A DNA stretch of 49,500 bases, from contig CALVOU010000003.1 in assembly GCA_944350365.1 (NCBI GenBank), positions 1 through 49,500 of the forward strand, in the 5' to 3' direction. The notes beneath the pieces were generated by a model. That model ran no database searches. It was not told the DNA's origin and worked only from the letters and a program-made list of their open reading frames with translations. A program made the position numbers and the translations under genes. The stretch is from an uncultured Bacilli bacterium. GTDB taxonomy: Bacteria > Bacillota_I > Bacilli_A > RF39 > UBA660. Below, in pieces: positions 4,070-47,892 of this stretch. Positions within the stretch are counted from its first letter, which is position 1. Each line of letters begins with the position of its first letter.

Positions 4070-4070
4070 A

Positions 4071-5495
4071 TTATCGTCCCCTTATTTGATTCTTTTTCGT
4101 GAGTAATGGATTACGTTTTTTTATTGTTTTAGGGTTACTGAGACGGATAAAACTGTCTTTTTGTTCAGAGAAAATAAATGGGGCAAATGGAGCAAGATAG
4201 GGTTTGTTGAAAGCATTGATACTACATAGTTTAGTAGTTAGAAGAATGATGCCTAAAAATATTCCATATATACCTAGTAAAGTAGCTAGAATCATAAAGA
4301 TAATTCGCCACCATCTAATTGCGGCAGTTAGTTCAATTGAGGTAAATACTAATCCGGATATCGCACTGATCGCTACGACGATAATCATAATCGGCGAGAT
4401 AATTCCCGCGCTAACAGCAGCATCTCCTAATACTAAACCACCTAGGATAGAGACTGCGGTTCCCATAGTAGAAGCCATTCGCATATCACTTTCTCTTAGT
4501 ATTTCAAAAGAAATGGTCATGAGTAGTGCTTCTACCAAAGCTGGAAAAGGAACGGTTTTTCGTTGCGCAAGGAAATTAACGAGTAGATCAGTCGTGATGG
4601 AGTCATAATTATGAGTAGTAATCGCAATATAGTAAGCGGGGATTAAAATCGCAATGAAAAAGGCAATTAATCGTACTAAGCGAATGAATGTAATATTAAT
4701 TGGTTTTTGATAATAATCATCGGGAGTATGAAAAAAATCAATAAAGAAACAGGGAAGAATCAAGGCATAGGGACTGTTGTCGATCATGACAATGATCTTT
4801 CCTTCTAGTAGAGCCATACCCGCTAAATCTGGCCTCTCCGTTGTCATAATGGTTGGAAAAATCGCCGATTCTTGATTGAGATATTGTTTTAGATAACTAC
4901 TATCGATGATGCCATCTATATTGATTTTATTTAATTTTTTTTCAATTTCCGTAACTAATTTTTTTTCGGCAATATTCTGTATATAAAGGATACCTACTTT
5001 GGTTTGGGTTTGTTTTCCAATCATGAGTGTTGAAGTCCAAAGATTACTCGTTTTTAATCGTTTTCGTAATAATCCTAAATTAGTATTAAAGTTTTCTGTA
5101 AAGGCATCTTTTGGTCCACGAATAGACACTTCTGCTTCCGCTTTGCCTATTCCTCGATCAAGGGAAGCTCTAATCTCCATTCCAAAACAACTATCATCTG
5201 GTAAGATAAAGATGACATATCCGTTCCATAACTTGGTTTGTAAGTCAGTATAGTCTTCAATTTTTTTGATATTGTGACTAGGTAATGAATTATAAAAGAA
5301 AGTGTAAAGATCAGTAGTAATCGTTATCTTTTCGTCGATAATTTTTGTTAGATTTTTTAATACGAATTCGCTAACATTTGCGCCACTTGTTAGTACTTCG
5401 CTGTAAACTAGTGTGATTTTTTGTTCTTGAATAGTGATGGTTCGATAAATAATATCATCAGCATTATTGGTATCTATTTGTAAACGTGTAATCAT
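4071..5495 (-). CDS. spore germination protein, GerxA subunit
   Basis: 474 aa with GerA-family blocks (RGPKDAFTENFNTNLGLLRKRL, TTERPD, LLEGKIIVMIDNSPYALILP, FEILRES..R) and a C-terminal membrane domain. RBS GAGAGGGAA precedes the ATG. Confidence 0.9.
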   Translation of the reverse strand: MITRLQIDTNNADDIIYRTITIQEQKITLVYSEVLTSGANVSEFVLKNLTKIIDEKITITTDLYTFFYNSLPSHNIKKIEDYTDLQTKLWNGYVIFILPDDSCFGMEIRASLDRGIGKAEAEVSIRGPKDAFTENFNTNLGLLRKRLKTSNLWTSTLMIGKQTQTKVGILYIQNIAEKKLVTEIEKKLNKINIDGIIDSSYLKQYLNQESAIFPTIMTTERPDLAGMALLEGKIIVMIDNSPYALILPCFFIDFFHTPDDYYQKPINITFIRLVRLIAFFIAILIPAYYIAITTHNYDSITTDLLVNFLAQRKTVPFPALVEALLMTISFEILRESDMRMASTMGTAVSILGGLVLGDAAVSAGIISPIMIIVVAISAISGLVFTSIELTAAIRWWRIIFMILATLLGIYGIFLGIILLTTKLCSINAFNKPYLAPFAPFIFSEQKDSFIRLSNPKTIKKRNPLLTKKNQIRGR

Positions 5496-5553
5496 GATTC
5501 TTCCCTCTCTTTATCTTAGTATGGATAAAGTTACCTAAAAATAGTCATTTCTC

Positions 5554-5582
5554 TTTTCAAAAATTAAAAAATATGTTAGAAT
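5554..5582 (+). promoter_or_regulatory. sigma-A-type promoter for the kinase-like gene pair
   Basis: TTTTCA (5554-59), a 17-nt spacer ending in TG, then TAGAAT (5577-82). This is an extended -10 29 nt upstream of the ATG at 5611. Confidence 0.45.
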
Positions 5583-5610
5583 AGCCTTCACTTTTTAAGG
5601 GGATTTAATC

Positions 5611-6333
5611 ATGAAAAAACGAATTGTGATTGCGGGAGTTAAATACGATTTGGAACTTATTGATGAAAAATGTGGGCAAACCACAGTGTGTTATCGTCTA
5701 CAAGTACTGAAAAGAAAAATCGATTATGCGATTAAGCTGTATCGTTCTTTTGATTATTTAGAGTTAGAGGATATCGCTAGGTTGCAGGAGTTTTATCTTG
5801 ATAGTTTTCCCATCTGTCTAAGTGAATATCTGGTCTTTGATGAAGAATGCAATTATATTGGTAGTGCGACTTCTTATATTGAGGAAAAATATGGTCCTAC
5901 GGAAAAAGTGATTTATCAAGTACCGTTAGAAAAAATTTATATGTATCTTTCACAGTTAGAAGAAAAGATTGCGTTAGTCACGATGAAAAAATTAGTTCTT
6001 TGGGATTGGGGAGTTGGGAATTTATTGTATGGAAGGGGACAAGACTTACCATTAGGGCTATATATGATTGATGATAATGGCTATTATTTTGATTCCCAAA
6101 TTACTTTTGAAGAAAATAGACGGGAATTATTCTATTTAATTAATGATATCATCGCTAACTTTGTCTTTCGCTATGCTGAGTCTTTGAAAGATCCTGTCAG
6201 TGAAAGGATTCTTACCCCTTATTTAAAGAGTGAAGATAGTTTTTCTTTATTAAAAACAGAGAGTAGAAATTATTCTTCACTTCAAGATTATTTATTAGAT
6301 AAAGTAGAATTCGTAAAAAGGAGAAGATTTTAA
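5611..6333 (+). CDS. small protein-kinase-like fold protein (paralog 1)
   Basis: The motif order matches the ePK/APH fold: a beta-hairpin then AIKLY (VAIK-like Lys), WDWGVGN (D-x4-N catalytic loop) and LYMIDD (DFG-equivalent Asp). 240 aa. Confidence 0.5.
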   Translation: MKKRIVIAGVKYDLELIDEKCGQTTVCYRLQVLKRKIDYAIKLYRSFDYLELEDIARLQEFYLDSFPICLSEYLVFDEECNYIGSATSYIEEKYGPTEKVIYQVPLEKIYMYLSQLEEKIALVTMKKLVLWDWGVGNLLYGRGQDLPLGLYMIDDNGYYFDSQITFEENRRELFYLINDIIANFVFRYAESLKDPVSERILTPYLKSEDSFSLLKTESRNYSSLQDYLLDKVEFVKRRRF

Positions 6334-7092
6334 ATGAAAAGTTGGCTTAGAATAAATGAGGATATGTATTATTTTGATCCTCAAGAAAAAGGACAGGGTG
6401 GTCGTACATCGGGAACGGTTTATCATCTTTGTCAGGATAATGTGGATTTGGCCGTAAAACTTTATTTAAATCTTGATGAGGTAGAAGATTACCCTGATTT
6501 AGAGACTATCACTTATTTTGGGTCGATTTCTTCTCAGGTATTACCGGTTATTGTTAGTCATTCTCCGGTATTTGATCAAGGAGGAGCTTATATCGGCTGT
6601 TCAGCGCCTTATTTATATGAATCAAAAGGGAATACAAGCAATCTTTTATGTAATTTACCGAAAAGCCAAGTGTTTTCTTATTTACATTCTTTAAATCAAA
6701 CCATAGATATTTTTACAAATCTTCATATTCAATTATGTGATTGGGCAATTTATAATCTTCGTTTTGGAGAAAATGTAAGTTATCAGTTACCTTTTTCCTT
6801 ATATATGATCGATGATAGTTTCTACGAACAGCAAGATGATAGAACTACAAAAGATTTATATTTAATTAATCGAATGGAAATGAACCGTTTAATTGTTTCT
6901 ATTGCGGATGAGTTTTTAAGTGCTAGGGAAGATATCTTACCTAAAGTAGAAAGGGAATATGTAAAGAGATATGAACATGTGAGTGATCCACTTTGTCTTT
7001 TAGAAAAAGATTGTGAACCGTATGCGACATTAGGTGAATTCTTTTCTTCGGTTCATCCAAAGGAAATTCAAAAACAGAAAAAAATGTCGTAA
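6334..7092 (+). CDS. small protein-kinase-like fold protein (paralog 2)
   Basis: GQGGRTSGTVYH (Gly-rich loop), LAVKLY, CDWAIYN (D-x4-N) and LYMIDDS. It is collinear with the upstream paralog, and its ATG directly follows the upstream TAA. Confidence 0.5.
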   Translation: MKSWLRINEDMYYFDPQEKGQGGRTSGTVYHLCQDNVDLAVKLYLNLDEVEDYPDLETITYFGSISSQVLPVIVSHSPVFDQGGAYIGCSAPYLYESKGNTSNLLCNLPKSQVFSYLHSLNQTIDIFTNLHIQLCDWAIYNLRFGENVSYQLPFSLYMIDDSFYEQQDDRTTKDLYLINRMEMNRLIVSIADEFLSAREDILPKVEREYVKRYEHVSDPLCLLEKDCEPYATLGEFFSSVHPKEIQKQKKMS

Positions 7093-7195: not shown

Positions 7196-7915
7196 ATGGA
7201 TCAAGAAAAAGTTGGACAATTAATTAAAGAGCTAAGAATAAAACACCATTTAACGCAAGCAGAATTTGCTAAACGTTACCATGTTACTTATCAAGCAGTA
7301 TCGAAATGGGAAAATGGAAAAAATATGCCTGATTTAGCGCTCTTAAAACAGATTTGTGCTGATTTTCAAATGGATATCGGTGATTTTCTTGATGGCGAAA
7401 TTACAGTAAAGGAATCTCCCAAACAAAAAAAATCCAAGAAAGTAAAGATAGGAATTGGGGTAATTGGAATTTTTGTTTTTTCCTTGCTTATTGGAGGATA
7501 TTTTTTCTTTTTTCAAAACGATGATTTTGAGTTTAAAACGTTATCTACTAGTTGTAGTCATTTTACGATATCGGGTAGTTTAGCTTATAATCGAAGTAAC
7601 TCTCATTTATATATTTCTAATATTGATTATTGTGGTGGCGAAGATAGTACGTTATATCAAGAAATCAGTTGTGTCTTATACGAAGTTCAAGAGGATAGTA
7701 CGACGAAAATTTCTGAAGCGAAATATGAAGGTGAAGAGATGATTACGTTAGAAGAATATCTTCGTGGGATTGATTTTAAAATCGATGATTTTTCTAGCGA
7801 CTGTTCTCGTTATTCGGAAGGAAGTTTATATTTAGAAATTAATGCTTCTAATTCTTTAGAAAAAACAACTACTTATCGCATTCCATTATCGTTTAATGAT
7901 CGTTGTACGAAGTAA
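7196..7915 (+). CDS. membrane-bound XRE-family HTH transcriptional regulator
   Basis: ATG at 7196 follows RBS AGGTGG. The N-terminal part carries an HTH_3 motif (LTQAEFAKRYHVTYQAVSKWENGKNMP). It is followed by a Lys-rich linker, one TM helix (IGIGVIGIFVFSLLIGGYFFFF) and a Cys-containing extracytoplasmic domain. Confidence 0.8.
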   Translation: MDQEKVGQLIKELRIKHHLTQAEFAKRYHVTYQAVSKWENGKNMPDLALLKQICADFQMDIGDFLDGEITVKESPKQKKSKKVKIGIGVIGIFVFSLLIGGYFFFFQNDDFEFKTLSTSCSHFTISGSLAYNRSNSHLYISNIDYCGGEDSTLYQEISCVLYEVQEDSTTKISEAKYEGEEMITLEEYLRGIDFKIDDFSSDCSRYSEGSLYLEINASNSLEKTTTYRIPLSFNDRCTK

Positions 7916-7939
7916 CTCAACTTATGCTTGAGTTTTTTT
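7914..7939 (+). terminator. rho-independent terminator after the XRE gene
   Basis: AACTCAA (7914-20), 7-nt loop, TTGAGTT (7928-34), then a T-run to 7939. Confidence 0.6.
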
Positions 7940-7953
7940 CAACTTCTTGTTTA

Positions 7954-7983
7954 TTGCTTTTTTTGATAGTTTTTTTTTATAAT
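7954..7983 (+). promoter_or_regulatory. candidate sigma-A promoter of the arylsulfotransferase-family gene
   Basis: TTGCTT (7954-59), 18-nt spacer, TATAAT (7978-83). Confidence 0.4.
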
Positions 7984-8004
7984 GGAGTTGTTAGGAGGTT
8001 AAAC

Positions 8005-9984
8005 ATGAAAAAAAAGAAACAAAGAAAAAGATGGGTTTTGGTTGTTATTATCCTTGCGATTATTTTAGTGATTAGTGGCGGAATTATGCTCTATGCTCAC
8101 TTACATTCGATCAATCATCAAGAAGTTGCTTATGTAGAGAGTATGGTAGAAAAGCAACAACACTTAGAAGAAGACTTTGATTTAGATGGATTTACGATAG
8201 ATAACGTTAAGGTAATTTTAAATCCTTACGGAAATTCTCCGCTTACGGCATTGATTGCGTTTGATACAGAAGAAGAAGTTGAAGTCAAAGTAACGATTCC
8301 AGGAAAAGATGAATCAACGACTTATACGCATACTTTTGATCAAACTAAAGAACATCGTTTACCAATCTATGGCCTCTATGCTGGTACGGTAAATCAAGTA
8401 AAAGTAGAATATGAAGAAGAGGAAAAATTAGTTTCTAAAACGATTGAGATTGAAACTGAAGCGTTACCTGATGATATGATTATTCCAGAAGATGTTTATG
8501 CAGACAAAGAGAAATTAGGTAATGAGCTTTATTTTTATACCCCATCTAGTTCAGGATATACATGTGCTTATGATGTAAACGGAGATGTTAGATGGTATTT
8601 TACGAATTATGCTCTTTGGAAGATTGATCGCCTAGAGAATGGTCATCTCTTAGTTAGTACTGAACGACTTGTCAATTCGCCATATTATATGACAGGATTA
8701 TACGAGATGGATTTATTAGGTAAAATTTATACGGAGTATAGTCTAGAAGGTGGCTACCATCACGATTATTATGAGATGCCTAATGGTAATTTGTTAGTCG
8801 CTAGTGATGATTTTAATAATGATGATGGTACGGTTGAAGATTATATTGTCGAACTTGACCGGAAAACAGGAGAAGAAGTTAAACATTTTGATTTGAAAGA
8901 TATTTTACCAATGGAAGATGGAAAAAGTGAAAACTGGTCTTCTTACGATTGGTTCCATAATAACTCAGTATGGTACGATGAAGCTACTAACTCTATTACC
9001 TTATCCGGAAGACATCAAGATGCGGTAATTAATATCGATTATGAAACTGGTGAATTAAACTGGATTATTGGAGATCCTACGAATTGGAGCGAGGAATATC
9101 AGAAATATTTCTTTACCCCAGTAGGAGATGATTTTGAATGGCAGTGGAGTCAGCATGCAGCGATGATTACGCCAGAAGGATATGTATTTATCTTAGATAA
9201 CGGGAATAATAAATCAAAAATTAAAGACGAATATGTACCAGCTGATGAGAGTTACACTAGAGGAGTCATGTATAAGATTGATACTGATAAGATGACAATC
9301 GAACAAGTATGGGAGTATGGGAAAGAACGTGGTAGTGAATTCTATTCCCCTTATATTTCTGATGTTGATTATTTAGGAGAAAATCATTATATTGTTCATT
9401 CTGGTGGGATAGTCTATGTGGATGGTAAAAATTCTAATCAGCCAGCTGGATTTAGTGAAGGAGCTGAATTATTGTCAGACACCGTAGAGGTAATTGATGA
9501 TGAAGTGGTTTTTGAACTAAAGTTACCAACCAACAATTACCGAGTAGAAAAGATGAGTCTATATACTGATCAAGATGAATTTTCTGTCGAAAAGGCAAAA
9601 CGTTTAGGTAGTTTAGGGAAAACAGAAGTTACTCGTAGTGAGATAGGCGCTATTCTGTCTAGTCGAAAGATAGATGACACTTATCAAAACCATGATGTTA
9701 CGTTTGAACAGGAATTTGATCGCTTAGTTGTCAAAGGACAATTTAAACGGGAAAACGAAGTAGAAGTTGTCCTTTATCAGAATTTACAGTCTAATATTTA
9801 TCAAGTTCGCGTCAGTAAGAAACCATATACGGCGTTATGTGTAGATATCTTTACCGAAGAAGAAACAGAGAATGGAATTTCTATTACGAAATATATTAAT
9901 GCGGAAGGATTAAGTGGTAAATATTCTATTTATCTTAGAATCGATGGCGTTTTATACGATACAGGAGAATATGTAGAATTTTAG
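8005..9984 (+). CDS. arylsulfotransferase (ASST) family protein, membrane-anchored
   Basis: ATG at 8005 follows RBS AGGAGG (7994-99). An N-terminal anchor (WVLVVIILAIILVISGGIMLY) is followed by an ASST N-domain-like block (LNPYGNSPLTALIAFDTEEEVEVKVTIPGK). Propeller blocks follow (GGYHHDYYEMPNGNLLV, WFHNNSVWYDE, SGRHQDAVINIDYETGELNWIIGDP, WSQHAAMITPEG). Confidence 0.7.
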   Translation: MKKKKQRKRWVLVVIILAIILVISGGIMLYAHLHSINHQEVAYVESMVEKQQHLEEDFDLDGFTIDNVKVILNPYGNSPLTALIAFDTEEEVEVKVTIPGKDESTTYTHTFDQTKEHRLPIYGLYAGTVNQVKVEYEEEEKLVSKTIEIETEALPDDMIIPEDVYADKEKLGNELYFYTPSSSGYTCAYDVNGDVRWYFTNYALWKIDRLENGHLLVSTERLVNSPYYMTGLYEMDLLGKIYTEYSLEGGYHHDYYEMPNGNLLVASDDFNNDDGTVEDYIVELDRKTGEEVKHFDLKDILPMEDGKSENWSSYDWFHNNSVWYDEATNSITLSGRHQDAVINIDYETGELNWIIGDPTNWSEEYQKYFFTPVGDDFEWQWSQHAAMITPEGYVFILDNGNNKSKIKDEYVPADESYTRGVMYKIDTDKMTIEQVWEYGKERGSEFYSPYISDVDYLGENHYIVHSGGIVYVDGKNSNQPAGFSEGAELLSDTVEVIDDEVVFELKLPTNNYRVEKMSLYTDQDEFSVEKAKRLGSLGKTEVTRSEIGAILSSRKIDDTYQNHDVTFEQEFDRLVVKGQFKRENEVEVVLYQNLQSNIYQVRVSKKPYTALCVDIFTEEETENGISITKYINAEGLSGKYSIYLRIDGVLYDTGEYVEF

Positions 9985-10009
9985 GAATAGTTAAATATTC
10001 CTTTTTTTC
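9983..10009 (+). terminator. rho-independent terminator
   Basis: AGGAATA (9983-89), 6-nt loop, TATTCCT (9996-10002), T-run to 10008. Confidence 0.6.
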
Positions 10010-10031
10010 TTGGGAAAAATTAGTTAACTTC

Positions 10032-10060
10032 TTTTCACTAGTTGATGGTTTTGTTATAAT
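10032..10060 (+). promoter_or_regulatory. sigma-A-type promoter of the LtaS-family gene
   Basis: TTTTCA (10032-37), a 17-nt spacer ending in TG-T, then TATAAT (10055-60). Confidence 0.45.
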
Positions 10061-10106
10061 GATAACAGGATAATATATGGTATAATAAGTTTTATTGGTG
10101 AAGAGT

Positions 10107-12095
10107 ATGAAGAAGTACAAATTAAAGAATTTAAATCTATTCGTATTTACTTTGTTAGTATTAGTGTATTTGGAAATTGTATTTAGACTATTAACTAAAG
10201 GGGCACTATTTAGTATTAGTCTATTGTATGTATTTTTATATAGCGTATTTGTGACTCTACTTGTTTGTTTTTTTGTAACATGGGGTAGTAATCGGGTAAA
10301 TAAAGGGATTTATTATATAACGATTTTTGTTATCACTTGTATCTTTGTGTTGCAGTTATGCATTTTTAAGATATTTGGCTTTTATTTTGATTTATCTCTT
10401 TTAAGTGCTACGGATCAAGTGATGAGTTTTATGGGGGATGGCTTGAAACTTATCTTCAAAAATTTATTGGGAATACTATTCTTGTTTTTACCATTTATCG
10501 GATTATTAGTTTTTCATAAGAAATTAGTCATTGATAAACAGGGAGGAAAAGAACATATTGGAATTTTAGCTGGTTCTATTTTCGTTTATATACTGTTTAT
10601 AGGAAGTCTTTATTTGAATGGTAATACGATTAATTCAGCAAGGGATTTATATTTTAATATCAGTAATAATGAACTTAATATAAGAAAATTTGGTGTTCTT
10701 GATGCTTTCCGAATAGATATCAAAAGAACTATATTTGGTTTTGAAGGAAAACTAAATATTACGGATGATGATATTGATCAAGATGTTGATAAGGATACTG
10801 ATCAAGATGATACTGATGAAGTGGATAATGAAGATAAGGAACCAGAATATGGATATCATCATTTAGATATTGATTTTGATTCTTTGATTGCTAATGAAAG
10901 TAATAGTACTATTCGGATGATGCATGAATATTTTAAGCAAGAAAATGGAACATTAGAAAACGAGTATACGAACTATTTTAAAGGAAAGAACTTAATCTTA
11001 TTTATGGCGGAGAGCTTTAATGAAATTGCGGTAAGAGAAGATGTTACGCCTACACTTTATCAGTTAGTGAATAGTGGCTTTAAGTTTAATAATTTCTATA
11101 CGCCAACGATAAGTAGTACCATTGGTGGTGAGTTTCAAGAACTTACGGGATTAGTCGCCACATCAGGATTTTTGTCTTCGTGGAAGAGTGGGGGAAATGC
11201 TTATCCTTTTGGGATAGCGACTGTATTTCAAGAACTGGGGTATAATACCTATGCTTATCATAATCATACCTATACGTTTCAGAGTCGAAATAAGTATTTA
11301 GCTTCTTTAGGGTTTGAACATTTTTTGGGTTGTCGTAATGGTTTAGAAAGGCGAATGAATTGTAACAAGTGGCCAGAATCGGATGTGGAAATGATCGAAG
11401 CAACTGTTTCTGATTATCTGGGTAAGGATAAGCCGTTCATGGTTTATTATGCGACGGTTAGTGGACATGGTGATTATACTTTCGGTTCTAATGCGATGTC
11501 TCTTAAACATAGAGATGATGTAGCAGGTCTAAATTATTCGGAAAAACCTCTTGCTTATTTAGCTGCTCAAATAGAACTTGATCAAGCATTAGCGTTATTA
11601 ATCGAGAAATTGGATGAAGCTGGTGAATTAAAGGATACAGTGATTGCGTTAGTTGGAGATCATTATCCTTATTATTTATCTCTTGATGAAGTAAATGAAC
11701 TAGCTAGTTATGAAAAAGATAGTGTAGTAGAAATTAACAGAAGTAATTTTATCTTATGGAATAGTGAAATGGAAACGGTAAGTGTAGATAAGGTAGGAAG
11801 TCAGATAGATGTATTACCGACCATTTATAATCTATTTGGCGTAGAATATGATTCTAGACTTATTATTGGAAAAGATATATTAAGTACTGAACCGGGAGTT
11901 GCGATATTTGGTAACTCTTCTTGGGTTAGTGATCAGGGGACGTACTATGCTAGTAGTGGTAAATTTGTAAGTCGTGATGGAATTAGTGTAGATAGTGATT
12001 ATGTTAGAAAAATGAATAATGTCGTTAGTAATAAAATTTTAATCAGTAGATATATTATGCAAAATGATTATTACAGAAAGGTCTTAGGGAAGTAA
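10107..12095 (+). CDS. LtaS-family (sulfatase-fold) phosphoglycerol/alkaline-phosphatase-superfamily transferase
   Basis: Five N-terminal TM helices and an Asp-rich linker (DDDIDQDVDKDTDQDDTDEVDNEDKE). The extracellular sulfatase-fold domain follows (NLILFMAESFN, TPTISSTIGGEFQ, GDHYPYY). Confidence 0.75.
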   Translation: MKKYKLKNLNLFVFTLLVLVYLEIVFRLLTKGALFSISLLYVFLYSVFVTLLVCFFVTWGSNRVNKGIYYITIFVITCIFVLQLCIFKIFGFYFDLSLLSATDQVMSFMGDGLKLIFKNLLGILFLFLPFIGLLVFHKKLVIDKQGGKEHIGILAGSIFVYILFIGSLYLNGNTINSARDLYFNISNNELNIRKFGVLDAFRIDIKRTIFGFEGKLNITDDDIDQDVDKDTDQDDTDEVDNEDKEPEYGYHHLDIDFDSLIANESNSTIRMMHEYFKQENGTLENEYTNYFKGKNLILFMAESFNEIAVREDVTPTLYQLVNSGFKFNNFYTPTISSTIGGEFQELTGLVATSGFLSSWKSGGNAYPFGIATVFQELGYNTYAYHNHTYTFQSRNKYLASLGFEHFLGCRNGLERRMNCNKWPESDVEMIEATVSDYLGKDKPFMVYYATVSGHGDYTFGSNAMSLKHRDDVAGLNYSEKPLAYLAAQIELDQALALLIEKLDEAGELKDTVIALVGDHYPYYLSLDEVNELASYEKDSVVEINRSNFILWNSEMETVSVDKVGSQIDVLPTIYNLFGVEYDSRLIIGKDILSTEPGVAIFGNSSWVSDQGTYYASSGKFVSRDGISVDSDYVRKMNNVVSNKILISRYIMQNDYYRKVLGK

Positions 12096-12164: not shown

Positions 12165-14015
12165 ATGTTAGAAGAAATTAAGAAACATACGGAATATGAT
12201 GTTGCGATTACGAAACAAGATCACTTTGGTGATGGAATTACCAAAATCGGGGACAAGCTTGTTTTTGTTAAACACGGTTTATCTGGGGATCAATGTCGTA
12301 TTGTGATTACTAATGTGAAGAAGACTTTTGCGGTAGCGAAAATTGAAAAGATGTTTCAACCTTCTTCGGAGAGAGTAAAGCCTATTTGTCCTCATTATGA
12401 AGGATGTGGTGGTTGTAGTTTAATGCATCAAGCCGAGGAGAAACAACTTTCTTTCAAAGAAAACAAAGTGCGTGAACTTTTTTCTCGTTTTGCGGGTATT
12501 TCTGATTTTGAAATAGAAAGTATCTCTCATGGTCAGCTTACTCATTATCGAAATAAAGTTGTGTTTCATGGGTTAAATGGGGAACTGGGTTTCTATCAAG
12601 AAAAAAGTCGTGATTTAACCCCAATTCAACAGTGTTTATTGGTCGATGAAGAAATCGATCAAGTTTATCAACGAATGCGAGATTATCTGATGACTTATCC
12701 AGATGAAGAAGTATTGGAAGTCATGATTCGTAAGACTAGTTTGAAAGAATTAATGTTGGCAGTAAAGGGAAAAGTTAATTCTGAACACTTGTGTTCTTTT
12801 TTTCAAGATTTTCCTTTAGCTTCCCTTCTTTTAAATGGTGAAGTTATATCTGGTAAGCGTTATATTACAGAAAAAATTTTTGATTTCCAATTTCGTATTT
12901 TATCAGAAGCCTTTTTTCAAGTGAATTATGACATGATGCTTAACTTGTACCAGAAAGTAATCAATTATTATCGGGATAAGCACTATCGTAAAGTTTTAGA
13001 TTTATATTCAGGAACTGGGACGATTGGATTATTACTTACGCCGTATGTGGAAGAAGTAGTTGGGATTGAAGTTGTTAAAGATGCTGTCTTGGCGGCTAAA
13101 ATGAATCAAGAGATCAATCAGGTAAAAAATATTTCTTTTATTCATGGAAAAGTAGAAGATTATATTGATGAGTTTGAACAGATCGATTCTTTAGTTGTCG
13201 ATCCACCACGTAGTGGATTAGATAGTAAGACAATCGCAACGATTCTTAAAATTTCACCAGATAGTATGGTTTATATTTCTTGTGATCCTGTCACTTTAGC
13301 ACGGGATTTAAAGAGTTTACTTTCTAATTATCAACTTTCTCATGTTCATTTAGTCGATATGTTTCCCAATACTTATCATATCGAAACTGTTGTGATTTTA
13401 GAAAAAAGAAGAGATTCTCTTTTTGATCATTATGATGTTTTAGTGAATCGCCTTCATCCTTATCAAGCAGAAGATTATCTGGGAATAGAAATGGTAAAAA
13501 CAAAGGATATCAACGGTCAGGATGTTTATGTAGAAAAAGAAACGTATGAGCATTATTTACTTTTTCGCACCAAATTACAAGAATTAGGAATTCAAGTTTC
13601 CATCTCTAGTGGTTATCGAACGCTTGCTGAACAACAACAAATTATCGATGAGTTTTATTCTCGATATCCTGAAGAGAAAGTAGCTCAGAAAGTCGCTCCT
13701 GTTGGAACGAGTGAACATCACACGGGACTTGCCTTAGATATTACTGTACGGACTCAGGACGATTATTTATCTAATCAATTAGATAGTGAAAAACAAAAAG
13801 AATATGGAGAACAATATCAAATTATGGAAACGCTTTGTGCAGATTATGGATTTATTTTACGTTATCCTAAAGATAAGGAAGAGGTGACAGGGGTAAATTA
13901 TGAACCTTGGCATTTTCGTTATGTGGGATATCCGCTTTCTAGAAAAATTATGAGTCAAAAGCTCACATTAGAAGAATATTTAGAAGAAAATTATATAATG
14001 GAGGAAATAAAATGA
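12165..14015 (+). CDS. fusion protein: RumA/TrmA-family RNA (uracil-5)-methyltransferase (aa 1-416) + VanY/VanXY-type M15B D,D-peptidase domain (aa 417-616)
   Basis: N-terminal part: TRAM-like region, 4-Cys cluster (C..CPHYEGCGGCSLMH), SAM motif LDLYSGTGTIGL, DPPRSG, catalytic SCDP, and the family's usual C-terminal MFPNTYHIETVVILEKR. C-terminal part: LVNRLHP, SGYRTLAEQ, SEHHTGLALDI and EPWHFRYVG, which are the M15B zinc and catalytic motifs. The frame is continuous with no internal stop. Confidence 0.8.
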   Translation: MLEEIKKHTEYDVAITKQDHFGDGITKIGDKLVFVKHGLSGDQCRIVITNVKKTFAVAKIEKMFQPSSERVKPICPHYEGCGGCSLMHQAEEKQLSFKENKVRELFSRFAGISDFEIESISHGQLTHYRNKVVFHGLNGELGFYQEKSRDLTPIQQCLLVDEEIDQVYQRMRDYLMTYPDEEVLEVMIRKTSLKELMLAVKGKVNSEHLCSFFQDFPLASLLLNGEVISGKRYITEKIFDFQFRILSEAFFQVNYDMMLNLYQKVINYYRDKHYRKVLDLYSGTGTIGLLLTPYVEEVVGIEVVKDAVLAAKMNQEINQVKNISFIHGKVEDYIDEFEQIDSLVVDPPRSGLDSKTIATILKISPDSMVYISCDPVTLARDLKSLLSNYQLSHVHLVDMFPNTYHIETVVILEKRRDSLFDHYDVLVNRLHPYQAEDYLGIEMVKTKDINGQDVYVEKETYEHYLLFRTKLQELGIQVSISSGYRTLAEQQQIIDEFYSRYPEEKVAQKVAPVGTSEHHTGLALDITVRTQDDYLSNQLDSEKQKEYGEQYQIMETLCADYGFILRYPKDKEEVTGVNYEPWHFRYVGYPLSRKIMSQKLTLEEYLEENYIMEEIK

Positions 14016-42843: not shown

Positions 42844-43756
42844 GGTAGAAAAGAATTTATTGAATGAAGTTTTGAATCACGATTCCATCGAACAGGCAGA
42901 TGCTTATAATATTCGCGCAAATGGGCACCTTCAAAAGAGAAAAGAAAACCCTTACATTCATATTCGCTCCAAAAAGGATGGAACTGGAATCGATATTGAA
43001 GTGTTACCTGACACTTTATTTGGCATTATCGATATTCCAGTTATCATTACTGAAAGTGGTCTTACGGATATTGTTTATAATGACTTTTACATTGGAAAAA
43101 ATGCGAATGTAACGATCGTAGCTGGTTGTGGGATTCATAATCATGCAGAGAAACAATCTCAACACAATGGAATTCATCGTTTCTTTTTAGAAGAAAATGC
43201 TAAAGTTCGATATATTGAAAGACATTATGCCGAAGGCAAGGGAGAAGGAAAAAAAGTATTAAATCCTACTACTGAGATTTCGATGAAAAAGGGTTCTTAT
43301 TTGATGATGGATACGATTCAGTTAAAGGGAGTAGATGAATCGATTAGAATTACAAAAGCGAATGTTGAGGACGGGGCAACCTTAGTGATCAATGAGAAAA
43401 TTTTAACGAATAATCATCAAACAGCTACTACAGATTTTCAGGTTACATTAGGTGGAGGTAATGCGAGCTGTCATGTGGTTTCTCGTTCTGTTGCCAAGGA
43501 TGATTCTTATCAGGAATTTTCTTCTAATATTATCGGAAAAGATTTGTGTTATGGTCATGTAGAATGTGATGCGATTATTCAAGAAAACGGACGCGTAAAA
43601 GCGATACCTGAAATTGATGCTCAAAGTGTCGATGCAAATTTGATTCATGAAGCTACTATTGGAAAAATAGCTGGCAGTCAATTGATGAAATTGATGTCGC
43701 TTGGCTTAAGTGAAAAAGAAGCGGAAAATGCTATTATTACAGGATTTTTAAAATAA
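42836..43756 (+). CDS. SufB/SufD-family Fe-S assembly scaffold protein (short, 306 aa)
   Basis: Beta-helix repeat region and the C-terminal family signature DANLIHEATIGKIAGSQLMKLMSLGLSEKEAENAIITGFL. Confidence 0.8.
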   Translation: MDKVEKNLLNEVLNHDSIEQADAYNIRANGHLQKRKENPYIHIRSKKDGTGIDIEVLPDTLFGIIDIPVIITESGLTDIVYNDFYIGKNANVTIVAGCGIHNHAEKQSQHNGIHRFFLEENAKVRYIERHYAEGKGEGKKVLNPTTEISMKKGSYLMMDTIQLKGVDESIRITKANVEDGATLVINEKILTNNHQTATTDFQVTLGGGNASCHVVSRSVAKDDSYQEFSSNIIGKDLCYGHVECDAIIQENGRVKAIPEIDAQSVDANLIHEATIGKIAGSQLMKLMSLGLSEKEAENAIITGFLK

Positions 43757-43770
43757 TAATATAGATATAA

Positions 43771-43798
43771 GAAGTTAGTGTGACTAATTTCTTTTTTT
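43771..43798 (+). terminator. rho-independent terminator of the suf pair
   Basis: GAAGTTAGT (43771-79), loop GTG, ACTAATTTC (43783-91, one G-U pair), T-run 43792-98. Confidence 0.6.
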
Positions 43799-43854
43799 GG
43801 TACACATAACCTATATTGCCTTTTTTTTGTTCATATGATGTAGTAGGAGGTTGT

Positions 43855-44106
43855 ATGAAAGATCAATGTCAATCGAACATAGAGAAAAAAATTGCTGATT
43901 TTGAAAAGTGTAAATCTCGGTTTATCTTTTGTCTTGGTGCGACGGGTCCCATCGGCCCAACAGGGCCAACAGGTTCAACAGGAATGACTGGTTCCACCGG
44001 CCCAACAGGTCCGACAGGCTCGACTGGACCGACTGGTCCAGCAGGAGGTCCACCTGGAGCGACAGGTCCGACAGGTCCAACCTTTCCATATTCTAATTTC
44101 ATCTAA
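43855..44106 (+). CDS. collagen-like (Gly-X-Y) protein gene, 5' segment, interrupted after codon 75/76
   Basis: RBS AGGAGG (43845-50) precedes ATG 43855. A 27-aa Cys-containing head is followed by about 16 G-X-Y triplets ([19 protein letters not shown]...GATGPTGPT). After 44082 the repeat ends abruptly in FPYSNFI-stop. Confidence 0.75.
43936..44082 (+). repeat. Gly-X-Y (mostly GPT/GST) coding triplet repeat, left block
   Basis: A 9-nt periodic GGN-CCN-ACN coding repeat with one single-residue interruption (GPA-G-GPP). Confidence 0.85.
44075..44081 (+). repeat. GTCCAAC, left copy of the 7-bp direct repeat (putative attL core)
   Basis: An identical heptamer is at 46426-32. Both copies sit in the same codon phase ((G/C)GT CCA AC(C/T)) and exactly at the points where collagen-like coding stops and resumes. 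Confidence 0.6.
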
Positions 44107-44133
44107 ATGGGAATAGAATGAATCAGGTTGGTG

Positions 44134-44271
44134 ATGAAGTTGAGAAAAGATAAAATTCATTATGTTTGTTTAGAAACTATTCAAATGGCTGATGAAACAA
44201 AAAATTTTATCGAATGTTTTAATCTTAAATATTATCAGACAATTATGAAATTAGAACAGTTAGAAGCTTGA
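44134..44271 (+). CDS. 45-codon ORF upstream of the recombinase (candidate directionality factor; coding status unproven)
   Basis: The ORF reads MKLRKDKIHYVCLETIQMADETKNFIECFNLKYYQTIMKLEQLEA. It is the only ORF in the leader. The RBS is weak (AGGTTGGTG). It is below the ORF-track length cut-off. Confidence 0.2.
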   Translation: MKLRKDKIHYVCLETIQMADETKNFIECFNLKYYQTIMKLEQLEA

Positions 44272-44316
44272 ATTCTATAGTTCAAAATAAAATTAGATTT
44301 GGTAATAGGAGGGATT

Positions 44317-46386
44317 ATGGAACGGGTAGTGTTATATTTACGGTTATCGGATGAAGATCGTGATAAGTTAACCCCCAAAGAACGATCAGAAAGTATCAAG
44401 AATCAAGAAAAGATGTTAACGGATTACGCTCTTCGTCAGAATTGGAGAATTGTTGCCATCTATGATGATGAAGATTGGTCGGGAGCGGATATTACTCGTC
44501 CTAATTTTAATCGGATGATTGAGGCTTGCCGAAAAAAAGAAGTTGACATTGTCTTAGTCAAATCTCAAGCTAGATTTGCGCGTGATATTGAGATTGTCGA
44601 GAAATATGTTCACGATAAATTTTTGGAGTGGAATGTTCGCTTTGTTTCTTTGATGGAAAAGATTGATAATACTCGACGAGAGACGAAAAAAATGAGTCAG
44701 ATTATTGGCCTTACAGACGAATGGTTCTTGGAGGATACTTCTCATAATATTCGTGAGACTTTGAAAACCAAACGACAAAATGGAGAATTTACTGGAAGTT
44801 TTGCTCCCTATGGTTATCAGAAAGATCCAGAAAATAAAAATCATTTACTTCCTGATGAGAGAGTGAGAAGGTATATCATCCGTATCTTTCAAGAATATAA
44901 TCGAGGGATGGGAATGGGAAAAATTGCGCAACGTTTAACAGAAGATAAAGTTCCTAGTCCATTAGAATATAAACTTTCTAATGGTAGTCATTTAAAGATT
45001 CCTACTTTAAATACTCACTTTCTTTTTGATAAAATTACTGAACCGGGTGGGTACGTTATCCGAATTTCTTATACTAATTGGAGTAGGAAGGTCATTCAAT
45101 CCTTATACACTTTAGAATATTTATCGAATTTTGCTTTTTTTCAAGGCGAAATTACTTTCTATGCTTTAAAAGATTCAAAAAGCAAAGTATATTATTCGTG
45201 TTGTCCTTTAGAAGAAGTGATGAAGAAGTGGAAATCAGAAGAATATTCTAAAATTTTTTCTTCTTTAGAAACAAACGACACTTGGCAATCTTTAAGTGTA
45301 GGAGAAATTCTTCCTAAGGAAGCTACTTGTCTTATGGTGTATACCCCTAAGTTAGATAGATTGAATGAGATCTATTATGAATTTCGTCTTCATCTAAAAG
45401 AGAATAAGCAACATTTAGAATATCAATATATTGTACATTGTCTTTCTCCGTATGAAAAATTAATCAATGATTATCAAATTCAGATTCGCAAAGAATTTGA
45501 GTGGAGTATGACAACAATAAGAAAAATTTTACAAGATGAAGTCTATTTAGGACATTTGGTTCAGTTTAAGACCACAACAGTAAGTTATAAGAATAAAAAG
45601 GTAATTTATCATGCTAAAGAAAGACAGATTCGGGTAGAAAATACACATGAGCCAATAATTGAAGAAAAGCTTTGGTATCAGGTTCAAACACGGTTGACTA
45701 ATCATAAGAAAGTAAGTAACAATGGAAAAGTGCACTTACTAGCAGGTAAAGTCTTTTGTCGTTCTTGTGGTCGTCCTTTTTATAAATGTGGGAAGAAGGA
45801 TGGTCACCAATTACGTTATTTGTGTTGTAAAGATAAAGTAAATAAATGGGTTAATTGTACTAATCGTAAGTATATTTCTGAATTTGAATTACATGAGGAG
45901 ATATTAAAGCGTTTTAATGAACTATTAAAAAAGTATTATCGAGTGGAGTTTCAAATTTCTCTTTATCAAAAAAATAATTTAAAGGGATGTTTAGATGAAA
46001 AAGTAGAAGTTTTAAGGAAAAGTAAAGGAGAAATTGAACAAGATTTAGAAAAGCAAAATCAGTATCTTCAAACTTTATATGAAGATTTTAAGAGGGGATA
46101 TCTTAATCGAGAAGAATATTTTTCTTTTCGAGAACGATATCGTACTAGTATAGAAAAAATAAAGAGGGAACTTCAGTACTTAGAAAGTGAACTAGCTGTT
46201 TTAGAACAACGGCAAATGGAAGAAAAAACGGATACTTTATATCTGGAAAAGTTATTTGCTAAGTATTGTTCTTTATCGCAATTAGATGTAGAAGTTGTAA
46301 ATGATTTTATTAAAAAGATAAAGATTGGTGAATATCATGCGTCGACTAAAAAACGAGAAATTGAAATTGTTTGGAATTTCGATTAG
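44317..46386 (+). CDS. large serine recombinase (689 aa)
   Basis: ATG at 44317 follows RBS AGGAGGG. The N-terminal resolvase domain carries the catalytic-Ser motif VLYLRLSDED..ESIKNQ, plus DDEDWSGADITRPNFNRMI and VLVKSQARFARD. The recombinase-domain blocks are GSFAPYGY and TIRKILQDEVYLGH. A Cys-rich zinc-ribbon region (CRSCGRPFYKCG...LCC...C) and a long C-terminal coiled coil follow. Confidence 0.9.
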   Translation: MERVVLYLRLSDEDRDKLTPKERSESIKNQEKMLTDYALRQNWRIVAIYDDEDWSGADITRPNFNRMIEACRKKEVDIVLVKSQARFARDIEIVEKYVHDKFLEWNVRFVSLMEKIDNTRRETKKMSQIIGLTDEWFLEDTSHNIRETLKTKRQNGEFTGSFAPYGYQKDPENKNHLLPDERVRRYIIRIFQEYNRGMGMGKIAQRLTEDKVPSPLEYKLSNGSHLKIPTLNTHFLFDKITEPGGYVIRISYTNWSRKVIQSLYTLEYLSNFAFFQGEITFYALKDSKSKVYYSCCPLEEVMKKWKSEEYSKIFSSLETNDTWQSLSVGEILPKEATCLMVYTPKLDRLNEIYYEFRLHLKENKQHLEYQYIVHCLSPYEKLINDYQIQIRKEFEWSMTTIRKILQDEVYLGHLVQFKTTTVSYKNKKVIYHAKERQIRVENTHEPIIEEKLWYQVQTRLTNHKKVSNNGKVHLLAGKVFCRSCGRPFYKCGKKDGHQLRYLCCKDKVNKWVNCTNRKYISEFELHEEILKRFNELLKKYYRVEFQISLYQKNNLKGCLDEKVEVLRKSKGEIEQDLEKQNQYLQTLYEDFKRGYLNREEYFSFRERYRTSIEKIKRELQYLESELAVLEQRQMEEKTDTLYLEKLFAKYCSLSQLDVEVVNDFIKKIKIGEYHASTKKREIEIVWNFD

Positions 46387-46425
46387 GAGTGGTAGAAAAT
46401 TGAATAAGCAGGGACAGGTCTAACC

Positions 46426-46432
46426 GTCCAAC
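46426..46432 (+). repeat. GTCCAAC, right copy of the 7-bp direct repeat (putative attR core)
   Basis: See the left copy at 44075-81. Confidence 0.6.
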
Positions 46433-46433
46433 T

Positions 46434-46505
46434 GGGCCAATGGGAATAACGGGACCGACAGGACCAACGGGAATAACCGGACCAACGGGATCGACTGGTG
46501 CGACA
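46434..46505 (+). repeat. Gly-X-Y coding triplet repeat, right block
   Basis: Eight consecutive GGN-NNN-ACN/ATG triplet units that continue the left block in phase. Confidence 0.85.
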
Positions 46506-47012
46506 GGTAGTTTAGAAAATACGATGACTTGTTTTTGTGTTCAACAGATGCGAAACATTTTAGAACAAATTATTTCTTTATATCCTAACGATGTTTTATC
46601 CATTACCATGGAAAGTGGAAATAATGTAAGTGGTCGTCCGGATTCTTTACTGCCTAGTAATAGTCCTGATGCTGGCTTATTCCAATTAAAAAATAATCAA
46701 AGCGCTTTAGAAGAAGCAGTTTCTATCTGTCGAATCGCGGCAATTACGGTAACAAGTTCAGTATATAATGATACGATAACCTTTTTACCAGAGCCTGTCT
46801 TAGCTAGTGGATGTGATCAAAATTGTGAAAATGCTCTTCGTAGTTATTTGCCAGTTGGCACTTCTAGTGTCTCCATTCAAGCAGGTACCAGAACTGTCGC
46901 AACAGGAACCATTTTAAAGAGTGAGCCAGGTATGGTCGTTGTGGTTTCTAATAATAATCAAAATCCAACTTTTGTTTCTTTATGTAAGGTAGAAATAGTG
47001 AATAAGTTTTAA
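46434..47012 (+). CDS. collagen-like protein gene, 3' segment (8 G-X-Y triplets + ~168-aa Cys-containing C-terminal domain)
   Basis: The frame is open from 46404 but becomes G-X-Y only from 46434 ([25 protein letters not shown]). No RBS precedes the ATG at 46440 used by the ORF track, so independent translation is unlikely. Confidence 0.7.
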   Translation, partial: GPMGITGPTGPTGITGPTGSTGATGSLENTMTCFCVQQMRNILEQIISLYPNDVLSITMESGNNVSGRPDSLLPSNSPDAGLFQLKNNQSALEEAVSICRIAAITVTSSVYNDTITFLPEPVLASGCDQNCENALRSYLPVGTSSVSIQAGTRTVATGTILKSEPGMVVVVSNNNQNPTFVSLCKVEIVNKF

Positions 47013-47094
47013 TCACTATTTCTTTTCTATTGTCTATAGTGTTTCTATCTAAATTTATGATATACTTGAATTAAGTAATCTAGGAGTTGATTAT

Positions 47095-47892
47095 ATGCGT
47101 GAAAAAATGAGAAATTTAATTAAGGGAAACGATAAAAAATCGGTATTTGTTTATTTTTTACTTCGTACGTTGATTATTATTTGTATGATCCGTGAGATCA
47201 TGAATGGCAATTTTCAGAATGCAGCACTTTGTGTGTTATCATTAGTTTTATTTTTATTACCTTTTTTTATTGAGAAAAAGATGAAGATCGAGTTACCTAG
47301 TGTATTAGAAATTATTATCTTTTGTTTTATTTTTGCCGCCGAGATTTTAGGAGAAATCAATAATTTTTATGGTACTTTTCCTTATTGGGATACTATTTTA
47401 CATACCTTAAATGGCTTTTTATGTGCGAGTGTTGGTTTTTCTTTAGTGTATTTACTTAATGAAAACAGTAAATCCTTTCATTTAGCCCCAGTATTTGTTG
47501 CGTTAGTTGCGTTTTGTTTTTCGATGACAATTGGGGTTGCGTGGGAATTTTTCGAGTATGGAATGGATACTTTATTTGGTTTGGATATGCAAAAAGATGA
47601 GATTGTGGATCATATCAATACGGTAACTTTTGATCCTGAACAAGATAATCAGGTGGTTTCTATTTCTAGTATTACCCATACCGTATTATATGGACAAGAA
47701 GATGTTTTACTAGAGATGAATGGATATTTAGATATTGGATTACATGATACGATGAAAGATATGTTTGTCAATTGTATCGGGGCTTTTGTCTTTAGTATAT
47801 TTGGTTATCTTTATATGATTAATAAGAAAAAGTTTGGTTTAGCTGGTGAATTTATTACTAAGCGGGCAACTTTACATAAAAGTGAGAATTAA
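47095..47892 (+). CDS. integral membrane protein, possibly YjdF/DUF2238-like
   Basis: About 6 TM helices. The WDTILHTLNGF and GVAWEFFEYGMD blocks recall DUF2238. The assignment is uncertain. Confidence 0.45.
   Translation: MREKMRNLIKGNDKKSVFVYFLLRTLIIICMIREIMNGNFQNAALCVLSLVLFLLPFFIEKKMKIELPSVLEIIIFCFIFAAEILGEINNFYGTFPYWDTILHTLNGFLCASVGFSLVYLLNENSKSFHLAPVFVALVAFCFSMTIGVAWEFFEYGMDTLFGLDMQKDEIVDHINTVTFDPEQDNQVVSISSITHTVLYGQEDVLLEMNGYLDIGLHDTMKDMFVNCIGAFVFSIFGYLYMINKKKFGLAGEFITKRATLHKSEN

Follow-up and report, generated by a model that had tools for sequence, protein, structure and literature searches.

How does a collagen-like gene come to lie in two pieces on either side of a recombinase gene, and can it be made whole again? 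This question is raised by positions 43855-47012 of a 49,500-nucleotide stretch of contig CALVOU010000003.1 (assembly GCA_944350365.1, uncultured Bacilli bacterium; the whole stretch is referred to as the window), where reading of the sequence and its open reading frames (ORFs) places the two halves of a collagen-like gene around the gene of a large serine recombinase (LSR). On balance, we favor the view that the gene is interrupted in a Thr codon by a non-phage integrative element of 2,334 bp, which can be excised and thereby rebuild the gene. What can be established directly by sequence comparison is the anatomy of the locus, the attachment site (att) architecture of the element family, the in-frame rebuilding of the gene in sister alleles, the fact that the split state is fixed, and the purifying selection that acts on the recombinase as well as on the split gene. 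Related loci and contigs are cited by L numbers. The coding parts of the locus are the following.

43855-44081, + strand: 5' segment of the collagen-like gene, which encodes a leader with Cys and then Gly-X-Y repeats, through the crossover AC.
44134-44271, + strand: small conserved ORF of 45 amino acids (47 amino acids if started from TTG 44128), directly upstream of the recombinase gene throughout the family.
44317-46386, + strand: large serine recombinase of 689 amino acids, identified by domain matches, catalytic residues, the ratio of nonsynonymous to synonymous substitution rates (dN/dS), and a structural model.
46416-47012, + strand: 3' segment of the collagen-like gene, with Gly-X-Y readable from 46433 in the window allele and the stop codon at 47010-12.

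The 5' ORF, which opens with ATG 43855 and is preceded by a GGAGG box, encodes a 28-residue leader and then Gly-X-Y repeats, but it leaves the repeat pattern past GGT CCA ACC (44074-82) and runs into a stop codon at 44104-06, which results in only 83 amino acids (ORF 43855-44106). Its leader and Gly-X-Y region show homology to the N-terminal parts of those family members that are uninterrupted. The 3' ORF, 190 amino acids ending at 47012, starts with ATG 46440, which has no Shine-Dalgarno sequence ahead of it. This Met is missing in the clade of L001, and a conserved start codon is lacking for the 3' piece. The central collagen-like region matches PF01391 (E=5e-10), and the C-terminal domain of about 167 amino acids is encoded by 46509-47009. 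Uninterrupted homologues are numerous (230-450 amino acids, ~55-65% identity) and have the same layout of leader, GPT-rich repeats and C-terminal domain. A first-pass annotation of this DNA had proposed that an element with a large serine recombinase splits the gene, and much of its description agrees with ours: the start and end of the 5' ORF and its length are correct, the internal ATG indeed lacks a ribosome binding site, the heptamer GTCCAAC is present at both boundaries (44075-81 and 46426-32), and the deletion of 2,351 bp does arithmetically yield an ORF of 268 codons. It had further suggested to search with the in-silico joined protein, and this search retrieves the uninterrupted homologues just mentioned.

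The recombinase is full-length, and its domain matches bear out the assignment to the large serine recombinases already made in the first-pass annotation. The domain order is Resolvase, Recombinase (split by an insertion), zinc ribbon, coiled coil and DUF4368. The catalytic Resolvase domain matches PF00239 at residues 4-157 (E=3e-23), with R9 and S11 being invariant across 21 homologues; PF07508 (Recombinase) and PF13408 (zinc ribbon) are both matched, long helices are seen at residues 522-651 of the structural model, and DUF4368 (PF14287) is detected at residues 638-688 with 29.8 bits at a cut-off of 25. By these matches, the enzyme falls in the DUF4368 clade, i.e. the TndX-like, multi-targeting clade to which Durrant et al. 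have tied this domain (PMC10083194), and members of which can integrate as well as excise without a directionality factor (PMC5704250). A beta-rich insertion of ~160 amino acids (residues ~235-392) breaks up the Recombinase domain, and this block is modeled with mostly high local confidence (predicted local distance difference test, pLDDT, mostly 82-91). The insertion is conserved family-wide and is missing from relatives in plasmids, phages and IMG/VR, as well as from another collagen-targeting LSR type that is described below. Named relatives in plasmids and phages are only distant LSRs, at most 39% identical and with no coverage of the insertion, and among the IMG/VR viral contigs no family member was found, only six distant LSRs without the insertion (45-49% identity over the best segment). 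The dN/dS of the recombinase is 0.11-0.23, with 0.11 within the lineage, where dS between the two clades is 0.31.

Where would such an enzyme cut? The placement of the crossover is decisive for what is regarded as element and what as gene, and the parts that result from our analysis are these.

44080-44081, + strand: attL crossover dinucleotide AC, with which a Thr codon begins (CCA ACn), placed by an arm symmetry scan and the att architecture of the family.
44082-44101, + strand: P' arm, left element end (CTTTCCATATTCTAATTTCA), a 13/20 match to the reverse complement of the P arm and present in a single copy in the window.
46394-46413, + strand: P arm, right element end (GTAGAAAATTGAATAAGCAGGG less its first two bases), placed by arm symmetry and family layout.
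46414-46415, + strand: attR crossover dinucleotide AC, placed by arm symmetry and the att layout of the family; the element thus comprises 44082-46415, 2,334 bp.
46416-46438, + strand: B' arm, host collagen repeat, which holds both changes of the window allele.

The layout of two palindromic arms of 20 nt, each directly next to an AC dinucleotide, is seen in at least 15 related elements. Among the relatives with both ends in collagen DNA, arm symmetry reaches 20/20 in L046, 18/20 in L041 and 17/20 in L057 and L065; five further loci score 16/20, and another four score 15/20. The host flanks across the family read GGNCC(A/T)-AC-NGGNCC, with AC opening the Thr codon of GGN-CCN-ACN-GGN, and Gly-X-Y can be read across the joint in 16/16 other rebuilt collagen attB sites. 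Twelve AC pairs are possible near the boundaries in the window, and the pair 44080-81 and 46414-15, which lies at the exact transition from collagen to non-collagen sequence, scores 13/20 (null P(>=13) = 7e-4 per pair), while the other 11 pairs remain at or below 10/20. The P' arm includes CATATTCTA at 44087-95. Imperfect inverted arms around a 2-bp crossover, which are a trait of large serine recombinases, are thus found in the window (13/20) as well as in the relatives (15-20/20), and the dinucleotide is always AC. Extra copies of either att arm, or a second att-like site, do not occur in the window.

The first-pass annotation had placed the crossover within GTCCAAC, which implies a 2,351-bp element and an in-frame product of 268 amino acids in the window allele. 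The 7-bp identity at both boundaries and the in-frame join are in favor of that placement, and it would also account for the commonness of an allele with a 1-nt deletion to which we come below. However, the arm symmetry of the GTCCAAC pair is just 4/20, and the crossover would lie 17 nt off the P arm and 44 nt past the recombinase stop codon, whereas the family range is 12-34 nt and AC 46414-15 is found 27 nt past the stop. Moreover, the 18 nt between the two sites, which would have to belong to the element, can be read in frame as TGPTGP or TGPSGP in all sister alleles, as is expected of host coding DNA and not of an element arm. Due to arm symmetry, distance from the stop codon and the Gly-X-Y coding of these 18 nt, the crossover most likely takes place at AC 44080-81/46414-15, and the model with a GTCCAAC crossover is improbable. 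With the AC/AC placement, attP of the element would be ...AATAAGCAGGG-AC-CTTTCCATATTC..., and excision is predicted to leave a chromosome junction that is 2,334 bp shorter and reads ...GACAGGTCCAAC/AGGTCTAACCGTCC... (also written GACAGGTCCAAC/AGGTCTAACCGTCCAAC; slashes mark the joints), together with a circle joint ...AATAAGCAGGGAC/CTTTCCATATTC... The two models can be told apart by their junctions, which would read ...CCAAC/AGGTCTAACC... for AC/AC and ACAGGTCCAACTGGGCCAATGG for GTCCAAC.

For excision, recombinase dimers would bind attL and attR, cut at AC and exchange the strands, whereby a 2.3-kb circle would be released and the chromosome would be resealed as a single collagen-like ORF. In silico, this precise excision does rebuild the gene in sister alleles: the rejoined ORF is in frame and encodes 274 amino acids in L011-L013, which have an identical recombinase, and 241 amino acids in L001 and L002, which belong to the clade of ~93% identity. 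The first-pass idea that an LSR element splits the gene and would give it back on precise excision is thus supported for these alleles. It is not supported for the window allele itself, for which the in-frame product had been claimed on the basis of the misplaced junction: here the AC/AC join is out of frame and gives only 86 amino acids. Over 7 kb, only four positions distinguish the window from L011, and two of these are in the B' arm, namely a C>T change at 46421 and, after 46425, the loss of 1 nt in comparison to near-identical contigs. It is these two changes that bring the rejoined window gene out of frame, and the two B' alleles read AGGTCCAACCGG and AGGTCTAACCG. A sequencing or assembly error was considered and rejected as cause of the frameshift, as 9 further contigs from independent samples and assemblers share the allele, which is thus common. 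It could be a null allele of recent origin, it could be excised only poorly, or the 190-amino acid ORF could be translated by re-initiation; in the window allele, the system is probably either decaying or yielding two polypeptides. The stop codon of the shifted frame after AC/AC excision, TAA 46447-49, lies 7 nt past the first base of ATG 46440. Such a geometry might permit a termination-reinitiation event, by which the C-terminal domain would be made as a separate polypeptide from the frameshift allele.

Is the split gene kept alive at all? No joined allele of this lineage was found among 5.8 billion proteins, where the best match of the joined protein is 62% identical. The cluster of the 3' piece has 33 members, with sequences on ~130 contigs, and all 15 members listed are fragments of at most 190 amino acids. 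In every contig inspected, the recombinase is found upstream at the same site, and this includes two sub-lineages that are ~93% identical in DNA. Despite three repeat-number variants, the 3' piece is in frame from AC to the stop codon in 12/12 other contigs of the same lineage, and the dN/dS of the C-terminal domain is 0.056 at a dS of 0.14 between the two clades, which means strong purifying selection. The simplest reading of these comparisons is that the gene would be regularly rebuilt and translated, with the element never being lost from the germ line. A fixed split state together with purifying selection is the signature of excision in a terminal cell, and the pattern therefore fits a programmed excision as it is known from skin, SPbeta and gin. 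That excision does occur appears likely to us with good confidence, while we hold it to be a little short of an even chance that the host benefits from excision because the gene is restored in a cell without descendants, most plausibly the sporulating mother cell.

The mother cell is the obvious candidate for such a terminal cell because the window contains a complete gerA-type germinant receptor operon (2014-5495, - strand), gerAA-gerAC-gerAB, encoding GerAA (473 amino acids), GerAC (326 amino acids) and the GerAB/spore permease (358 amino acids); the presence of a ger operon had already been pointed out in the first-pass annotation. A possible hint to the timing of expression is found upstream of the collagen-like gene.

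43804-43812, + strand: -10-like box CATAACCTA of the mother-cell sigma type (CATAnnnTA), 43 nt ahead of the ATG; a weak lead.

CATAnnnTA is the -10 type of mother-cell sigma factors. It is present at -28 to -50 in 5/13 promoter groups of the collagen family versus 7/94 control upstream regions, an enrichment that is only suggestive of mother-cell expression. A scan of 43600-47200 for sigma-70 promoters and terminators gave nothing beyond the shuffled expectation, nor did it show a + strand terminator in the DNA that leads from the 5' piece to the small ORF and the recombinase gene. As the element has only ~50 bp of its own upstream DNA, the promoter of the collagen-like gene may read through into the small ORF and the recombinase gene and thereby drive the excision genes. 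A promoter at the circle joint (TTGAAT-17-TATTCT), considered by analogy with Tn4451, was dropped as it is not conserved in relatives. The interruption of the ORF is thus shown, and the gerA operon and the weak CATAnnnTA enrichment are hints that the interrupted gene may be a mother-cell sporulation gene. The sporulation timing of excision and a spore-surface role of the protein are proposals.

For such a role, the first-pass annotation had drawn an analogy to BclA-type proteins, which did not survive closer inspection of the C-terminal domain. The model of this domain (pLDDT 85.5) consists of two units, each a helix plus a five-strand barrel; a fold search with it in the PDB gave no match at E<1e-3, and a sequence profile against the PDB matched only via the collagen part, including BclA (1wck) over the Gly-X-Y stretch. 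A BclA/C1q-like C-terminal domain was thus rejected, as there is no C1q/TNF-like match by sequence or by fold.

What else does the element carry? The recombinase is not its sole gene, as had been assumed in the first-pass annotation, since the conserved ORF of 45 or 47 codons lies inside as well. In the related loci examined, small ORFs of 45-57 amino acids immediately precede the recombinase gene (41/88 in an automated motif screen) and share the motif ..IFNxKY[FY]xxI[KM]+xE; searches against Pfam, NCBIfam and PHROGs gave no match for the small ORF. Its conserved position beside the recombinase suggests a partner that is possibly used for integration or excision, and it is a candidate for a recombination directionality factor (RDF) or accessory factor. 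The 2,334 bp hold only these two genes, and neither a relaxase gene, an origin of transfer (oriT) nor a Mob module. Related elements have 2.9-6.5 kb, and the window element is the smallest seen. In some relatives, cargo lies between the left arm and the small ORF, namely a gene for an APH-family phosphotransferase (possibly an aminoglycoside kinase) and two NUDIX hydrolase genes (L031 4020-4796; L041 2979-4690), so that the first-pass description of a stripped-down element was apt.

Full-length relatives of the recombinase with 42-93% identity form at least 120 protein clusters, and there are 458 matches among the GTDB species-representative genomes, nearly all in uncultured gut Bacilli labeled "Tenericutes" or "Mollicutes". 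Insertion sites were counted in the 69 fetched loci with enough downstream DNA, and 42 of them pass from the recombinase stop codon straight into at least four Gly-X-Y triplets (36 co-oriented, 6 opposite). Viewed over the family, and not for this single enzyme, the targets include collagen-like genes that differ in their C-terminal domains as well as ABC-ATPase genes, besides others. In L064, L086, L088 and L090, the insertion is in ABC-transporter ATPase genes at ...CCAAC/NGGNGC..., which encodes 'PTGALD/PTSALD' and mimics the collagen target. Judged from these insertion sites, the natural target of the family is collagen-triplet DNA, and the family is a large and previously undescribed one from uncultured gut Bacilli. 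Within the literature searched, we found no paper that connects large serine recombinases to collagen-like genes, in line with the remark in the first-pass annotation that collagen-like spore-surface genes are not known among the described targets of such elements. Nine contigs of metagenome-assembled genomes (L032, L034, L042, L055, L067, L083, L084, L087, L093) end 2-60 nt past the recombinase stop codon, at the att site; this could be due to collagen repeats that break the assembly, or to a mixture of integrated and excised molecules.

Collagen DNA is also entered by the other LSR type mentioned above. In a GC-rich human-gut species, an LSR of 563 amino acids, 36% identical and devoid of the insertion, splits a homologous collagen gene at GCC-AC-CGG. 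Comparison of L136 (2163-3873) with L128 (~3873) shows that the interrupting element of more than 3.8 kb carries this LSR gene and a DUF6870 gene, and that the C-terminal domain of the collagen protein is 58% identical. The occupied (L136) and the empty (L128) allele coexist in different samples and are 99.9% identical downstream. By this comparison, collagen-triplet DNA is a target that LSRs have hit repeatedly, presumably since the sequence GGNCC...GGNCC already forms an inverted repeat.

What weighs against an excisable, gene-rebuilding element? In the window allele the rejoined gene is out of frame; the promoter evidence is weak; the C-terminal domain has no BclA/C1q-like fold, and the protein is at most a candidate spore protein. 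Four close relatives (L014, L015, L091, L016) have the small ORF and the recombinase at this locus, but neither collagen halves nor att arms. The family looks mobile and multi-targeting, considering DUF4368, insertion in both orientations, the ABC-ATPase targets and the APH/NUDIX cargo. An excision junction was not observed, and a search of metagenome contigs for the attP circle joint gave 0 matches, a result that is uninformative as no contig of the lineage (>70% identity) appeared in this collection, from which it is seemingly absent. Metagenomes in which the lineage is present are, for example, ERR4835858, SRR13801629, SRR32391972 and ERZ24773251.

The mobile appearance of the family leads to the most serious alternative, namely that the element is a selfish serine-recombinase transposon or the remnant of an integrative mobilizable element of the Tn4451/Tn5397 type, that it entered the collagen repeats on account of their match to its target motif, that the gene is simply inactivated, and that excision serves the element alone. 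The clade membership of the recombinase, the insertion in either orientation and also in the 'PTGALD' motif of ABC-ATPases, and the cargo genes of relatives would all be natural for such an element, and so would the frameshifted window allele and the presence/absence polymorphism that the other LSR type shows in the homologous collagen gene (L136 versus L128). In contrast, a merely inactivated gene would not be expected to have a strongly purified C-terminal domain and a reading frame that is kept in 12/12 sister alleles through changes in repeat number. In addition, the element occupies the same site in all contigs of the two sub-lineages, an empty site was not seen in the lineage, and there is no relaxase or oriT within the 2.3 kb. 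We therefore regard the selfish alternative as unlikely.

It could also be that recombinase and small ORF have been domesticated, with their main job elsewhere in the genome and the collagen insertion being a relic. This is where the relatives without a collagen gene are of relevance. Their loci are flanked by the same SufBD and DUF2238 genes (L014 4849-7067; L016 4820-7061; L015 and L091 ~4850-7060), palindromic att arms were not found in them (at most 8/18), and nevertheless their recombinase ORFs are intact with a dN/dS of 0.15-0.24, including the collagen-less pair L015-L091. The recombinase of L014, from Ca. (Allo)scybalousia intestinigallinarum, is 78% identical to that of the window. 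These relatives have the pair at the locus without a collagen gene, which is thus dispensable there. In L015, the flanks are 88-97% identical to the window, whereas the recombinase is just 61% identical, and this gap indicates that the locus carries deeply diverged alternative alleles. Candidate origins of the collagen-less loci are parallel loss, an ancestral state, or allele exchange. In the lineage of the window, however, the att arms and both gene halves are conserved, and a second att-like site is absent from the 49.5 kb, which makes the relic explanation doubtful at best for this locus.

Collagen-like proteins are typical surface and antigenic structures. A vegetative ON/OFF phase variation of such a surface protein by reversible excision and re-integration, which would suit LSRs of the TndX/TnpX type that work in both directions without an RDF (PMC5704250), has only a slim chance, because a 2.3-kb circle without replication function would disappear on division and leave heritable empty sites, none of which were seen.

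Returning to the excisable element that rebuilds its target gene, a more far-reaching version can be formulated, which we put forward only tentatively and which we think is rather unlikely to hold in all its parts: the recombinase family would be specialized on a single codon phase of collagen-triplet DNA, the element would be a programmed switch that is retained in the germ line and rebuilds spore-surface genes in the mother cell, read-through from the target promoter would drive it, and the stranded pair of small ORF and recombinase would be under selection as host genes in related species.

If gene rebuilding is confirmed, the target class would be a new one, as repeat-encoded structural genes would be entered in a fixed codon phase by a recombinase family that is present in hundreds of uncultured gut species. 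The element would also be a very small self-contained gene-rebuilding unit, as its two genes and 42 bp of site fit into 2.3 kb, well below the size of prophage-type elements. Since the loci comprise split alleles that are fixed and under selection, an allele with a frameshift and recombinases that are stranded, one can test directly where a selfish element ends and a domesticated one begins. For practical purposes, the family may provide LSRs that are compact and have a defined target of ~40 bp (GGNCCA-AC-NGGNCC type), along with a small ORF that is a candidate directionality factor. For annotation, it is of importance that collagen-like genes in metagenome-assembled genomes will be mis-called as fragments, and that contigs will often break beside these recombinases. 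Elsewhere in the window, 12165-14015 is one ORF of 616 amino acids that combines a TRAM + RumA-type RNA uracil-5-methyltransferase with a C-terminal VanY D-Ala-D-Ala carboxypeptidase, which is either an unusual fusion or a missed stop codon, and in 7903-12095 an arylsulfotransferase gene (ASST, 693 amino acids) adjoins the gene of a sulfatase-domain membrane protein (666 amino acids).

How does the element compare with known systems? The named sporulation gene-intervening elements are skin, SPbeta, vfbin, vrin, gin and yin, and so far such elements have been found in a handful of unique sporulation genes (sigK, spsM, spoVFB, spoVR, gerE, yabG). The closest parallel is gin in gerE of Bacillus cereus ATCC 10987, a non-phage intervening element with an LSR and an RDF (GirC and GirX), the excision of which during sporulation has been demonstrated experimentally (PMC5595907). 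Both are non-phage elements in a small ORF that encode a serine recombinase and a small extra factor, both have inverted-repeat arms around a central dinucleotide, and precise excision, which rebuilds the gene in the case of gin, would do so here. The differences are that gin has girA, girB and girC as well as regulator and metalloprotease genes (PMC5595907), whereas here there is one recombinase and a small ORF, and that the target of gin is a regulator gene and not a repeat-encoded structural gene. Moreover, excision in sporulation is an experimental fact for gin and a proposal here.

In the cases of skin (SpoIVCA, sigK) and SPbeta (SprA/SprB, spsM) of Bacillus subtilis and skinCd of C. difficile, an LSR rejoins a split gene (PMC4191935, PMC5499854, PMC5025042). 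The germ line keeps these elements and they are excised in the terminal mother cell, and the fixation and selection observed here fit this scheme. With tens of kb and a unique attB each, they represent prophages or what is left of them, whereas here we have 2.3 kb of a non-phage family, and a target motif that recurs in many collagen-like genes.

Tn4451/Tn4453 (TnpX) and Tn5397 (TndX) resemble the element in their LSR of ~700 amino acids, which has DUF4368 at its C-terminal end, in a crossover of 2 bp and in a circular intermediate, which is predicted for our element (PMC5704250, PMC10083194). They are likewise small non-phage elements, sometimes with resistance-type cargo, and have many target loci with a common motif. 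In the Tn4451 type, the crossover core is GA, whereas the core is AC here, and a Mob/oriT module is absent. The recombinase described here furthermore has the beta-rich insertion of ~160 amino acids, and the repeat that it targets is a coding one, which is entered in a fixed codon phase.

As to the protein, the BclA-type exosporium glycoproteins also have a short N-terminal leader, a triple-helix region of Gly-X-Y (mostly GPT) and a globular C-terminal domain and occur in spore-formers, but the C-terminal domain here is not a C1q/TNF-like jelly roll. Taken together, the logic is that of gin, skin and SPbeta, and the recombinase clade is that of Tn4451 and Tn5397, while the target class, the fixed codon phase, the minimal size and the large unannotated family are new.

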